From Escherichia phage REP4: a stretch of DNA of 64,000 nt. Below the pieces are notes generated by a model. The model did not search any database and had not been told where the DNA came from. It was given only the letters and a program-made list of their open reading frames with translations. The stretch lies in the sequence record OQ174503.1. One strand, given 5' to 3'. Made by a program: the position numbers and the translations under genes. This document shows positions 36,446 to 58,346 of this stretch, one piece after another; position 1 is the stretch's first letter, and each line of letters begins with the position of its first letter.

Positions 36446-36916
36446 TTAATCATGTTTCCACACCCCATCGGTATTTGACCAAAGTCGCTGATTATCTGAA
36501 CCTCGCCACAGCTTTTTGGTCGGAAGATTTTTCTCATACTTCCCATCAATAATAACATCAACATATTTAAGCATTTCTAGTTGTTTAATATCTTCAAACT
36601 TATATCCTGTCCACAACCAAATGCTTTTATTTGGATAAAGATTTTTTACCGTTTGAACAATGCAATGAACATCATCTCGGTTATCAGGATAAAGAGGGTC
36701 TCCTCCAGTTATAGTTAATCCTTCTATATAATCATTATTCAAACATTCAATTAATTGTTCAAGTGTTTCACCAGTGAATGGAACGCCATTTCTAGCATTC
36801 CATGTTGATTTATTATAACACCCTTCACATTTATGCAAACACCCCGTAACGAAAAGAACGACCCTGCATCCAGGGCCATTCACAAAATCGCAGGGATAAA
36901 ATCTATCGTAATTCAT
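36446..36916 (-). CDS. nrdG: Anaerobic ribonucleotide reductase activase NrdG (radical SAM), 156 aa
   Basis: CxxxCxxC cluster GCLHKCEGCYN; 4-nt overlap with nrdD. Confidence 0.9.
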   Translation of the reverse strand: MNYDRFYPCDFVNGPGCRVVLFVTGCLHKCEGCYNKSTWNARNGVPFTGETLEQLIECLNNDYIEGLTITGGDPLYPDNRDDVHCIVQTVKNLYPNKSIWLWTGYKFEDIKQLEMLKYVDVIIDGKYEKNLPTKKLWRGSDNQRLWSNTDGVWKHD

Positions 36917-38730
36917 TGGTGTTTAACCCTATGCATGATTTCTTTATTTTTGCCAAGATTAAATCCGCGTTCGTTCGGATTTCCCAAATAACCACAAGTT
37001 CTTCTTATTGTGTTCATCTTTTTAGGATCAGTTTCTCCACAAATAGAACAAACAAATCCGTTTTCAGTAGGAGTCATTTCATGGGTACTTCCACACGTAA
37101 AACATTTATCTACTGGCATGTTAACACCAAAATAATCTAAATGTTGTGCAGCATAATCCCATACAGCCTCAAGACCTTTTAGGTTATTTTTCATATCAGG
37201 AAGTTCAACATAAGAAATGTGACCGCCTGTCGCAATGAAATGATATGGGGCTTCGCGAGAAATCTTTTCAAACGGAGTAATATTTTCTTCTACTGAAACG
37301 TGGAAACTGTTGGTGTACCAGCCTTTATCAGTAACATCCTTTACACTTCCATATTTTTCGGTATCAAGTTTACAGAAGCGATAGCACAGGTTTTCAGCAG
37401 GAGTAGAATACAAACTAAAAGCAAAACCAGTTCTTTCAGTCCACTGCTTAAGACGAGCATTCATTTTAGTTAAAATTTCTTGTCCAATATCACGACCGAC
37501 AAGAATATTCAATTCGTGAATACCAATGTATCCTAGGGACACTGAACTTCTACCGTTTTTAAATAACTCAATTATGTCGTCGTCAGGTTTAAGACGAACC
37601 CCGAATGCACCTTCTTGGTAAAGAATAGGAGCAACAGTCGCTTTAACTCCTTTTAAGGAACTAATTCTACACATCAAAGCTTCAAAACATAAATCCATTC
37701 GTTCATTGAACAATTCGGCAAATTTCTGTTCATTGAACTGTGTTCCAGTATAAGAATCTAACGCAATACGAGGAAGATTCAGTGTTACAACACCAAGATT
37801 ATTACGTCCATCAAGAATTTCATTACCAGTCGAATCTTTCCATACACTCAAGAAACTACGACAACCCATTGGAGAAACAGGAATAGATGAACCGGTGATA
37901 GCTTTATTGTTCTTAGCCGAAATGATGTCAGGATACATTCTTTTGCTTGCACACTCTAAAGCAAGCTGCTTAATATCATAGTTCGGATCGTCTTTATAAA
38001 GATTAACACCCTCTTCAACGAACATAACAAGCTTAGGGAAAATAGGAGTTATCCCATCACGACCAAGGCCTTTAATACGATTTTTCAGAATTGCTTTCTG
38101 AATCATTCGTTCAGTCCAGTCAGTTCCCGTACCAAATGTAATTGTTACAAAAGGCGTTTGTCCGTTTGAACTAAAGAGAGTATTTACTTCATATTCATAA
38201 GCTTGGAACGCATCGTATACGTCTTTTTCTGTTTTAGACTGGGCGTAATTCAACGCATCAGCGATTTGCCATTTTTCTGCATCCTCAATATGTTTTGCGT
38301 AGGTGCGTTTAACATAAGGAGAAAGGACTTTATCTACATTCGCAAAAGTCGTTCCGCCATATTGATGGGAAGCAACCTGCGCAGTAATTTGTGCCATAAT
38401 TGCAGTAGCAACGCCAATTGATTTAGGAGTTTCAATCTGTGCATTACCGAGCTTAAATCCGTTCTCAAGCATTCCTTTTAAATCTACTAAACAACAATTA
38501 GTAAATGGAAGAGCAGGAGAATAATCAATATCATGGAAATGGATAATTCCGCTTTCATGCGCTTTCATAATAAAAGACGGGACCATATTTTTGGCAATGT
38601 GTTTAGACACAATACCAGCCATAAGGTCCCGTTGAGTTGGAAAAACACGAGAATCTTTATTAGCATTCTCGTTTAAAAGGTCTTTATTAGTTTTATGAAT
38701 TAATCCTTCAATTTCTTTTTCAATTGTCAT
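36913..38730 (-). CDS. nrdD: Anaerobic ribonucleotide reductase NrdD (glycyl radical), 605 aa, uninterrupted
   Basis: C-terminal glycyl radical motif RRTCGYLG and zinc ribbon CFTCG...CSICG; continuous ORF. Confidence 0.95.
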   Translation of the reverse strand: MTIEKEIEGLIHKTNKDLLNENANKDSRVFPTQRDLMAGIVSKHIAKNMVPSFIMKAHESGIIHFHDIDYSPALPFTNCCLVDLKGMLENGFKLGNAQIETPKSIGVATAIMAQITAQVASHQYGGTTFANVDKVLSPYVKRTYAKHIEDAEKWQIADALNYAQSKTEKDVYDAFQAYEYEVNTLFSSNGQTPFVTITFGTGTDWTERMIQKAILKNRIKGLGRDGITPIFPKLVMFVEEGVNLYKDDPNYDIKQLALECASKRMYPDIISAKNNKAITGSSIPVSPMGCRSFLSVWKDSTGNEILDGRNNLGVVTLNLPRIALDSYTGTQFNEQKFAELFNERMDLCFEALMCRISSLKGVKATVAPILYQEGAFGVRLKPDDDIIELFKNGRSSVSLGYIGIHELNILVGRDIGQEILTKMNARLKQWTERTGFAFSLYSTPAENLCYRFCKLDTEKYGSVKDVTDKGWYTNSFHVSVEENITPFEKISREAPYHFIATGGHISYVELPDMKNNLKGLEAVWDYAAQHLDYFGVNMPVDKCFTCGSTHEMTPTENGFVCSICGETDPKKMNTIRRTCGYLGNPNERGFNLGKNKEIMHRVKHQ

Positions 38731-55404: not shown

Positions 55405-55683
55405 TTATTCTTTAAATCTAATCAATTTATTCATAGACTTTGAAACTTCTGCACGAACCTCATGTAGGTTTTTAAGCTGTTCAAGACGCTGCTCATAGTA
55501 AGCAATTTCATCTTCTTCGAGACAGTCCTGTGAATCTTCTTTAAGATAACGTGCATAGTCCTGGAAAGCTTTACGGACTACTTCCTGGAAGTCATCAAGA
55601 CTTTGAATTTTCTTAGGAGCAACAGATACACGACGAGGGGCAGTATAATACTCATAACCAAACCCTGCGCTTAATTGAGCCAT
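55405..55683 (-). CDS. Hypothetical protein (92 aa from ATG at 55683)
   Basis: ORF track trimmed; GAGGAAA Shine-Dalgarno. Confidence 0.5.
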
Positions 55684-55949
55684 TAATATTTTTCCTCTGG
55701 TTGAAACACAGCACGACAAGCCCACATACTAGCTTCTTTGAGTTTCGTTTTAGCAATAGTTAACTGATCGATGCTTTCAGCATAATTCTTCGCGAATTCA
55801 TAGTCTTCACAATTATTTAGCACTTCCCAGAATTCGTCGTATAAAGCATCAAAGATAAGTCCTAAACGAACTTCAGCGTCTTTGATTGCATTCACTTTAC
55901 CGATTTTCTCTTCAGTATGGGGCTTATAACCTTTAATGTCTTCAATCAT
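55683..55949 (-). CDS. Hypothetical protein (88 aa from ATG at 55949); a vs.4/Acb2-like slot by position only
   Basis: ORF track trimmed; GAGGAAG Shine-Dalgarno; positional inference, not sequence-based. Confidence 0.45.
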
Positions 55950-56163
55950 ATTTGACTTCCTCACCAGTACATAAATCATATTCAACTAAACGAATAGGTT
56001 CATGAATGCCATATCCCTGAACGGAAATTTCTGTCGTAGGATAAATTCCACTAATATCACCCATGTTCCATGCTTCATTAAATTGCTGTTCGCCTGAATT
56101 ACTAAACCATTCGGCGAAAGCATTTAGCACATCTTCAGAACCTTCAATAATTATCTTTGCCAT
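55942..56163 (-). CDS. Hypothetical acidic protein (73 aa)
   Basis: ORF track. Confidence 0.5.
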   Translation of the reverse strand: MAKIIIEGSEDVLNAFAEWFSNSGEQQFNEAWNMGDISGIYPTTEISVQGYGIHEPIRLVEYDLCTGEEVKYD

Positions 56164-56525
56164 TACAGGCTCTCAGTAAAGGTACGAGCGATAACGTCGC
56201 GCTGCTGTTCCGGAGTCAGAGAGTTAAAGCGAACTGCATAACCGGATACACGGATGGTCAGCTGCGGATATTTTTCCGGATGCTTAACTGCATCTTCCAG
56301 AGTTTCACGACGCAGAACGTTAACGTTCAGGTGTTGACCACCCTCGATTTTAACTGTAGGTTGTGTTTCAATTTCAATTTCACGGGCATGCAAACCATAG
56401 AAAATTTCTGGGTCTACAAAAGAGTCCTCTTTAAAAGTTTTAGAGACAATAATTCGTGCTTGAATACCATCTTCAAAATAAATAGTACCTTTATGCGTGC
56501 CTTCAAGAATTTGATATGCTTTCAT
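56163..56525 (-). CDS. Autonomous glycyl-radical cofactor (GrcA/YfiD-like), 120 aa
   Basis: C-terminal glycyl radical motif [26 protein letters not shown]. Confidence 0.65.
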
Positions 56526-56532
56526 ATAAACC

Positions 56533-56862
56533 TCAATTAGAAAATAAATTTATCCAAGATTGTTCTTTAATTAAAAATGGCTCAGAATCATATGCCATTA
56601 AACTCTGTGTGATTAGTCCTTTAAAAGGCCCATCAATAAATTCCATAGTAAAATATGGAATTTTATTCATTAGCCGTGCATTAGGAGCCGTGCACAAAAC
56701 TCTGCATCCTTTGAATACGCCTTTTTGTAATTTGTATTGCTTAGGATAAAATTCGCTCAAAATGTTATTTTTTGCTAAAATTTCAAAATGATTCACCAAT
56801 TTATTTTTAATAGTTTTTGGCGAAAAATAGAGATATTCGAAAAGCTGAGTGTCTGTCATCAT
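56533..56862 (-). CDS. Hypothetical protein (109 aa from ATG at 56862)
   Basis: Start overlaps stop of upstream P-loop gene. Confidence 0.45.
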
Positions 56863-57398
56863 TGCATTCCGATTACGAAAAACTGTGGACGAGTAATACC
56901 ACCAATGCAACATTTAATATTACAGCAGCAGTGTACAGTGTCAATATGGACACTATAAATCTTATCCATATCAGGAGATTTGACAGGCTCATCAATTATA
57001 TATAAAATTCGCGAAAGCTTTAAACCTCTGAACTTGCTTCCTTTATTACCGATAAAACTGCGCACAGAATCAGTAAATAAACGAAAACGTATATCATCAT
57101 TAGAATAACGCGAAAATTCCTTTTTAATGTTATTTGCAGAAATTTTAGCGTAAGCTGAAGTATTAGAAAGAACAATAACTGTTCCGCCATCATACAACCA
57201 ATTAGCAGCAAAGTTAGTCACAGCAATTGATTTACCGGATTGACGTCCACCGTCTAGTCGAAGTGTGCAATACTGTTTAAGTAATTCTTCAAATGGCGGG
57301 ATATATTCGTTTTTACAAATTTCTTCTACTCTAGCATCAGAATGGTGTGTAAAAGCATTCATCAGGGATAGATAAGGACCAGTTAAAAATGTTCTCAT
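56859..57398 (-). CDS. Small P-loop NTPase (179 aa) with Cys-rich C-terminus
   Basis: Walker A DGGRQSGKS, Walker B ILYIIDEP, tail HCCCNIKCCIGG. Confidence 0.5.
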   Translation of the reverse strand: MRTFLTGPYLSLMNAFTHHSDARVEEICKNEYIPPFEELLKQYCTLRLDGGRQSGKSIAVTNFAANWLYDGGTVIVLSNTSAYAKISANNIKKEFSRYSNDDIRFRLFTDSVRSFIGNKGSKFRGLKLSRILYIIDEPVKSPDMDKIYSVHIDTVHCCCNIKCCIGGITRPQFFVIGMQ

Positions 57399-57538
57399 TT
57401 CTTCTCTCTAAATTTGGGCCATTCCGTGGCGCATGAATTGTCCATTTCTGTATTTACCCATTACCGCACTTGGGCTCGACCTTATTACAGGTTGGCGGGA
57501 ATCCCTCACAGAATCATGAGGTCCAGGTTGTTCCCATA

Positions 57539-58012
57539 TTATTTGAACGATTTAACGTACTGAATAGAACCTTTACTATTCACGAAAGCGATTTTACCAT
57601 TTTTATTATACATGGTAGCAGTACGCTGATAGCCATAAGTTTGCTTACCAGATTGATAACCAACTAATGCAAAATTATCTTCACCCATTTTATTCTGTTT
57701 AGCGCGAATGCGTTCATGACCATGTGCCATAAGAACCTTAGCATCACCAGTTGCAATGGATCGACGAGTTTTTTCATCTTCAACTGTATTAACAAAGTCG
57801 TCAAATGAATCAAATTTAGCATGAGATTTATTATACAGTTTTCCATCTACTGCATAATTATATCCCTGTACATCCATCTCAACTTCTGTACCATCATCCA
57901 ATACAGCAGTGATTTTCTGTCCTTTTTTAAATTTCAAAAGATCAGTAAAAGATTCAGCAATAATTTGAGAATTAATAGTTGCTTCAGTAATAAATTCTTG
58001 ATATGTTTTCAT
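57539..58012 (-). CDS. Internal-protein-like head protein with capsid-targeting N-terminus (157 aa)
   Basis: N-terminal MKTYQEFITE with I-x-E protease-site pattern; ipII/ipIII locus next to e. Confidence 0.65.
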   Translation of the reverse strand: MKTYQEFITEATINSQIIAESFTDLLKFKKGQKITAVLDDGTEVEMDVQGYNYAVDGKLYNKSHAKFDSFDDFVNTVEDEKTRRSIATGDAKVLMAHGHERIRAKQNKMGEDNFALVGYQSGKQTYGYQRTATMYNKNGKIAFVNSKGSIQYVKSFK

Positions 58013-58028
58013 GTGTATCCTTTAATTT

Positions 58029-58346
58029 TTATTCTTTAGGGAAGTTTTTAGAATATGCATCATAAAGCTTATTTCCAATACGGCGGAAAACTCTAGCCGC
58101 AAAACGATTTTCTGGGTTTTTAATCATGATTTGCATCATATAAGTACCCGCGTCAGAAAGAGCTTCTTCATAGTACCCGTTAATTTCTTTAAGAGTCCTA
58201 CGTTTACCACCAGGACCATCAACAGTGATTTTCCATTTACCTGTAGAAGTGCGACTTGGCGGCTCAACTTGTTCAATCCAGATATAACCGCCTTCTACAC
58301 GTTGTCCTTGGGCAGATTCTGCAATAAATTCTTTAAACGTTTTCAT
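58029..58346 (-). CDS. Internal-protein-like head protein with capsid-targeting N-terminus (105 aa)
   Basis: N-terminal MKTFKEFIAE; adjacent to lysozyme gene. Confidence 0.65.
   Translation of the reverse strand: MKTFKEFIAESAQGQRVEGGYIWIEQVEPPSRTSTGKWKITVDGPGGKRRTLKEINGYYEEALSDAGTYMMQIMIKNPENRFAARVFRRIGNKLYDAYSKNFPKE

Follow-up and report, generated by a model that had tools for sequence, protein, structure and literature searches.

Vs.6 of Escherichia phage REP4, a glycyl-radical protein of the GrcA kind whose radical domain closely matches host grcA

The vs.6 gene and its surroundings

The window (the whole stretch of DNA that was analysed) comprises 64,000 nucleotides of Escherichia phage REP4 [GenBank:OQ174503.1]. 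Judged by its sequence it is a T2/T4-like Tequatrovirus: the 3-kb stretch around vs.6 shows 97-98% DNA identity to many T2/T4-like phages, and the gene order regB, vs.3, vs.4, vs.5, vs.6, vs.7 is common to the window, T2 and T4 (with 94-97% identity in the flanks of vs.6). An earlier note on this DNA had pointed to a 120-aa protein at 56163-56525, and the list of open reading frames indeed contains this frame, with an ATG start and on the minus strand. The following features are found at the locus:

56163..56525, minus strand: coding sequence of vs.6 (Y06I); ATG start, 120 aa and stop codon; GrcA-type autonomous glycyl-radical cofactor (basis: ORF list, matches in Pfam, NCBIfam and PDB, identity to T4 vs.6, phrog_1209)
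56346..56525, minus strand: phage-type 5' half, codons 1-60 (gene nt 1-180); GC 0.33; conserved among Straboviridae; 14/60 residues identical to GrcA
56163..56345, minus strand: 3' half derived from the host, codons 61-120 and stop codon (gene nt 181-363); GC 0.50; 181/183 nt shared with E. coli grcA; structured radical domain (GrcA 68-127)
56241..56243, minus strand: GGT codon of Gly95, the predicted radical glycine in RVSGYAV; equivalent to GrcA G102 and PflB G734
56531..56534, minus strand: Shine-Dalgarno GAGG as read from the sequence, ~6 nt 5' of the vs.6 ATG and inside the 7-nt gap past the vs.7 stop

On its other side the gene is also tightly packed, as the TAA stop of vs.6 and the ATG of vs.5 are read to overlap (TAATG). 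A scan for sigma-70 promoters and terminators between 54800 and 58500 returned 13 sites against 12.7 expected from shuffled sequence, and hence no excess of such sites near vs.6.

The T4 ortholog of the gene is vs.6 (NP_049730); the two agree at 353/363 nt and 118/120 aa. Both genes occupy the same syntenic position and have the same mosaic structure (see below). T4 Vs.6 differs by two substitutions (T54 vs P54 and R73 vs H73, the window protein agreeing with E. coli GrcA at position 73), and the last three codons of the host-like tract read GAG AGC CTG in the window against GAA AGT TTG in T4. In RefSeq the T4 and T2 orthologs both carry the name GrcA.

A few observations concern the neighbouring genes. 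The program-made ORF for vs.7 (56533-56913, minus, 126 aa) is over-extended and has a 55-nt overlap with the ORF upstream; in T4 and T2 the protein counts 109 aa, which places the start at 56862 in the window. Between vs.7 and the lysozyme gene e (56859-58346, minus) the window has the T2 layout, consisting of a 179-aa hypothetical protein, a DUF7412 Ip4-like protein (57539-58012) and a 105-aa ORF. The T4 layout (vs.8, denV, ipII, ipIII) is missing between vs.7 and e, and denV was not seen at 56859-58346. Two genes downstream of vs.6, the vs.4 ortholog (55683-55985, minus) matches Pfam Acb2_Tad1_hairpin (E=1.6e-19), the family of anti-CBASS cyclic-nucleotide sponges.

Family membership of Vs.6

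Gly_radical (PF01228) is the sole Pfam domain in Vs.6 (E=2.2e-18, residues 60-101). The NCBIfam profile for the autonomous glycyl radical cofactor GrcA (TIGR04365, IPR011140) matches residues 20-120 with E=1.4e-45; the score of 154.6 bits stays below the curated equivalog cut-off of 170 bits because the N-terminal half is divergent. Among known structures, E. coli GrcA (PDB 6owr) is matched with E=4.6e-42 over residues 22-120, and PflB (PDB 1h16) with E=4.8e-26 over residues 58-120, corresponding to PflB 697-759. Over its C-terminal 60 residues Vs.6 agrees with E. coli GrcA 68-127 at 60 of 60 positions, and 49 of the 63 residues (78%) are shared with PflB 697-759. The glycine context that supported the GrcA/YfiD-type assignment in the earlier note is therefore conserved in the alignment with E. 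coli GrcA (G95 aligns with GrcA G102), and the assignment itself agrees with the Pfam, TIGR04365 and 6owr matches and with orthology to T4 vs.6/Y06I. The glycyl-radical peptide quoted there is present as well, though not at the very end of the protein: five further residues (FTESL) follow it.

Similarity to the N-terminal half of GrcA is much lower (codons 1-60, 14/60 residues identical), with homology starting from approximately residue 22 (on the GrcA side ARCIVAKAGFAEDEVV). The profile phrog_1209, on the other hand, is matched over the full length including the phage-type N-terminus (E=5.4e-63, residues 1-120 against a 121-position profile). This full-length similarity, together with the position in the order vs.7 - vs.6 - vs.5, groups the protein with T4 Vs.6 and phrog_1209.

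Like E. coli GrcA (YfiD, PDB 6OWR), Vs.6 is a small stand-alone protein of the ~14 kDa class with little beyond the glycyl-radical domain, and the context of the radical glycine is identical in both. The N-terminal half of Vs.6 is 7 residues shorter. Furthermore, vs.6 is phage-encoded, co-oriented and tightly spaced with its neighbours, whereas grcA is a stand-alone chromosomal gene. With the C-terminal domain of PflB (693-759) the protein shares the PFL-type radical loop (RVSGY, in full RVSGYAV) and a homologous C-terminal helix, but it has neither the catalytic barrel nor Cys418/Cys419 and is therefore no enzyme by itself. A full pyruvate formate-lyase (~760 aa, with a ten-stranded barrel and the catalytic Cys-Cys pair) was considered and rejected: just positions 680-744 of the 744-position profile TIGR01255 are matched, at 89 bits against a cut-off of 994, that is, the C-terminal part of the profile alone. 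In identity, orthology, motif and domain type, Vs.6 is thus an autonomous glycyl-radical protein of the GrcA kind. A single-sequence AlphaFold2 model was unusable (mean pLDDT 35, pTM 0.22).

Mosaic structure of vs.6 and the origin of its 3' half

The two halves of vs.6 differ strongly in their relation to grcA. The 5' half has about 40% nucleotide identity to grcA and a GC content close to that of the whole window (0.345), and the contrast in grcA identity with the 3' half is highly significant (Fisher p = 6e-41). When 5426 complete E. coli genomes were searched with blastn, gene nt 181-363 had a match of 95-99% (best 98.9%) in all 5426, the 5' half in none. Conversely, a full-length host-like grcA was not found in any phage record in our search of these. 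The first residue encoded by the host-like tract is the E of EGGQHL (GrcA residue 68), and the tract spans the domain that is structured in the NMR model of YfiD (residues 61-127). An assembly chimera with host reads is ruled out, given that the same mosaic occurs in T4, T2 and approximately 500 independent phage genomes.

To compare hosts, we took the 171-nt core of the tract (EGGQHL...RTFT) from 16 phage genes and aligned it with 83 host grcA genes, the host panel being without Aeromonas and Vibrio. The K. pneumoniae gene was taken from CP125156.1, a 5.37 Mb whole chromosome that is labelled 'plasmid unnamed2'. In K. aerogenes NCTC10006 (LR134122.1) an extra A in an A-run splits the grcA ORF (200-590); this is probably an assembly error and one base was removed before comparison. 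Three phage genera have cores close to the grcA of their hosts:

Tequatrovirus (hosts E. coli): 170/171 to E. coli grcA
Mosigvirus (hosts E. coli): 167-171/171 to E. coli grcA
Jiaodavirus (hosts Klebsiella): 163-164/171 to K. pneumoniae grcA and 144-150/171 to E. coli grcA; GC 0.57-0.59

Between E. coli and K. pneumoniae the core contains 21 diagnostic sites, 19 of which are third codon positions. The window is E. coli-type at 21/21 of them, and Klebsiella phage LilPanda is Klebsiella-type at 19/21 and E. coli-type at none. The codon at which the host-like tract starts is identical in the lineages of E. coli phages and Klebsiella phages (Jiaodavirus). A query with K. pneumoniae grcA retrieved 77 phage records at 95-99%, nearly all of them Klebsiella or Raoultella phages, and a query with Salmonella grcA gave no phage match at 95% or more. 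Not every lineage tracks its host: in Karamvirus, Pseudotevenvirus, Winklervirus, Krischvirus, Biquartavirus, T5-like phages and the other IMG/VR loci, identity to any of the 83 host genes does not exceed 86% (147/171).

Among the hosts compared, the core of the window is closest to E. coli (170/171), followed by another Escherichia (168), Citrobacter (157) and Salmonella (141). Since the tract also has a host-like GC content (0.50 against 0.345 for the window), the direction of transfer is host to phage. Transfer from phage to host is ruled out by the same GC content and proximity to E. coli and by the presence of the tract in 5426/5426 E. coli genomes.

Comparison of relatives provides indications of repeated events. 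When the window is set against Mosigvirus G53, identity is 74% in the flanking genes, 89% in the vs.6 5' half and 97% in the host-like tract, an island of near-identity that is best explained if both phages took the tract from E. coli recently. Among close relatives, the tract also varies at its 3' end: besides the window and T4 endings given above, T2 has ACC GAG AGT TTG and Mosigvirus ...CTA. Within genera, the cores of G53 and O157tp3 share 165/171 positions against 179/180 for their 5' halves, and those of LilPanda and JIPh_Kp122 share 165/171 against 178/180. Cores that are more divergent than the adjoining 5' halves are suggestive of repeated events, in what are small numbers.

Together, the sequence comparisons show the radical domain to have been copied from host grcA, through homologous recombination or gene conversion, into a gene that the phage already had, independently in E. 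coli phages and in Klebsiella phages; they point to repeated conversion from host to phage. A more far-reaching version would be that the grcA of the current host (E. coli in Tequatrovirus and Mosigvirus, Klebsiella in Jiaodavirus) overwrites the radical domain of vs.6 time and again, with the phage N-terminal half being kept. Vs.6 would then be a case of ongoing natural gene conversion from host to lytic phage, in which the spare part stays matched to the local PflB and PflA and the host history is recorded. We advance this version tentatively, at somewhat less than even odds.

A comparable pattern is known from cyanophage psbA, likewise a host-derived metabolic gene, in which patchy GC content has been attributed to intragenic recombination with host genes (PMC3900582); the kind of evolutionary pattern is the same. 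In vs.6, by contrast, the tract is 99% identical to a present-day host gene, coincides with exactly one structural domain and occurs in enterobacterial T-even phages. Possibly new is the finding that the radical-bearing half copies host grcA almost exactly at the DNA level; we found no description of the mosaic in the searchable literature, whose coverage is partial, so that this is no proof of novelty. The mosaic, matched to the host, is a side result of modest weight. A 180-nt tract of a strictly lytic phage that is 99% identical to the host chromosome, with a parallel Klebsiella-type tract in Klebsiella phages, provides direct natural evidence for recurrent recombination between T-even phage and host DNA. 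The grcA-like tract could also serve as a simple marker of host history and as a natural substrate to measure rates of host-to-phage conversion, which is relevant to phage evolution.

In two records the tract and the isolation host disagree: Yersinia phage phiD1 has an E. coli-type grcA tract (97.3%) and Salmonella phage PSE-D1 a Klebsiella-type tract (97.1%). The grcA-like tract may accordingly report the evolutionary host history rather than the host of isolation.

Homologs were also seen in more distant phages. T5-like (Tequintavirus) phages and very large viral contigs (235-357 kb) contain homologs with the phage-type N-terminus MKAYQNLKSG...; these are without a host-like tract (at most ~81% to the host panel), and in both T5-like phages inspected the vs.6-type gene adjoins tRNA genes. 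In Erwinia phage Virsaitis27 (Winklervirus) the homolog (301-672) ends in ...RTFTKGSNGY against the usual ...RTFTESL, which alters the last helix of the radical domain. A 19-kb 'viral' contig, IMGVR_UViG_2706794630_000006, has a bacterial-type grcA (MITGIQI..., 156/171 to Yersinia); this gene probably belongs to host DNA or to the flank of a prophage and not to a phage.

Function and partner of Vs.6

The protein and its repair role are already known, T4 Y06I having been characterised in 2001. According to a later account (PMC8683613), Wagner et al. (BBRC 285:456; Knappe and co-workers), a paper that also appears among the references of a 2026 review, found that E. coli YfiD and T4 Y06I restore oxygen-cleaved pyruvate formate-lyase (PFL). 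In the same account, restoration involves installation of the radical by the PFL-activating enzyme and formation of a complex with cleaved PFL, and the two proteins are the only spare parts validated experimentally to date. In that sense nothing about the Vs.6 protein itself is new, but it illustrates well how a lytic phage can encode a part to repair a fermentation enzyme of its host.

Given that T4 Y06I is reported to take up the radical from the PFL-activating enzyme and to restore cleaved PFL, the reading of Vs.6 as a spare part is upheld. Like GrcA, which replaces the damaged part of oxygen-cleaved PflB once activated by PflA, Vs.6 would be a spare part that repairs oxygen-cleaved host PFL, and we assign this reading a probability of roughly 0.88. 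That PFL-AE activates Vs.6, and that Vs.6 rescues cleaved PFL in vitro, is expected by analogy with the 98%-identical T4 protein, for which the literature reports both. Under this reading, oxygen cleaves host PFL at the radical glycine G734 and Vs.6, whose radical domain is predicted to have the fold of PflB 693-759, would dock into the damaged enzyme. Host PflA would then put the radical on G95 of Vs.6 and the complex would regain PFL activity. During infection at microaerobic or fluctuating oxygen levels, conversion of pyruvate to acetyl-CoA and formate could in this manner be kept up, sustaining the ATP supply for the phage; the benefit to the phage is what we infer from this scheme. The phage protein may dock differently, and its binding or activation efficiency could differ, because the half that diverges from GrcA is the one that matters in YfiD: there, measurable binding to cleaved PFL and efficient activation both depend on the disordered N-terminal half (PMC8683613).

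The earlier note had named two possible partners for rescue, NrdD of the phage or the pyruvate formate-lyase of the host, with nrdD/nrdG also being present. Both genes do lie within the window, as established by Pfam:

36913..38730, minus strand: nrdD, anaerobic ribonucleotide reductase (Pfam NRDD 1.2e-171) with its own radical site IRRTCGYLG; context only, not a likely partner of Vs.6
36446..36916, minus strand: nrdG, radical-SAM activase of NrdD (Pfam Fer4_12 2.1e-48 plus Radical_SAM); context only

A role of Vs.6 as spare part for the NrdD that the phage itself encodes, with activation by phage NrdG, would fit with the presence of both genes in the same window as vs.6, with the Pfam Gly_radical match that NrdD and Vs.6 have in common, and with the fact that NrdD is also cut at its radical glycine by oxygen. 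Nonetheless, the genes are ~17 kb apart in different gene clusters, and the radical sites are of different types. The IRRTCGYLG loop of NrdD sits behind CFTCGS...CSICGE, with 5 Cys in the last 90 residues, whereas Vs.6 reads TIRVSGYAV, contains zero cysteines and does not have the NrdD-type arrangement (RRxCGY behind CxxC...CxxC). BLASTP of Vs.6 against NrdD of the window found no significant similarity (E=2.6), and the weak alignment lies away from the radical site. As the identity to GrcA (100% in the radical domain) and PflB, the lack of cysteines and the BLASTP outcome all favour host PFL, activated by host PflA, as the target, that half of the earlier proposal stands and the NrdD half is dropped as extremely improbable.

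Two other explanations accept the resemblance to GrcA and question the repair role. Vs.6 might be a decoy or modulator: it would compete with host GrcA, or titrate either PflA or damaged PFL, and use its phage N-terminal half to redirect or dampen host fermentation. The N-terminal 60 residues are indeed phage-specific and conserved among phages, the corresponding half of YfiD governs binding to cleaved PFL (PMC8683613), and a competitor would require a radical domain identical to that of the host. Against this, Y06I is reported to reconstitute PFL activity and not to inhibit it (PMC8683613), and the sequence of Vs.6 gives no hint that the radical glycine or the C-terminal helix has been lost; we consider such a role quite unlikely. 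Alternatively, vs.6 might be a functionless passenger, in which a host-homologous stretch is overwritten through chromosomal recombination at no benefit to the phage. A host-identical tract could arise neutrally in this way, and the vs.6 region of T4 consists of small genes that are mostly annotated as hypothetical proteins. However, an intact ORF with the conserved phage-type N-terminus is present in 1588 phage records (Straboviridae, T5-like Demerecviridae and the 235-357 kb contigs), which argues for a retained function, and most lineages have no host-like tract and yet keep the motif intact. This makes a mere passenger highly unlikely, and repair of host PFL is the reading that we retain.

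The vs.6 case also exposes problems of annotation, both in PHROGs and in GenBank phage records. In PHROGs v4 the entry for phrog_1209 reads 'unknown function'; in GenBank, vs.6 homologs go by the names 'pyruvate formate-lyase', 'acetyltransferase' or 'ribonucleotide reductase subunit' in many phage records. The label 'pyruvate formate-lyase', used in many phage records, is a misnomer.
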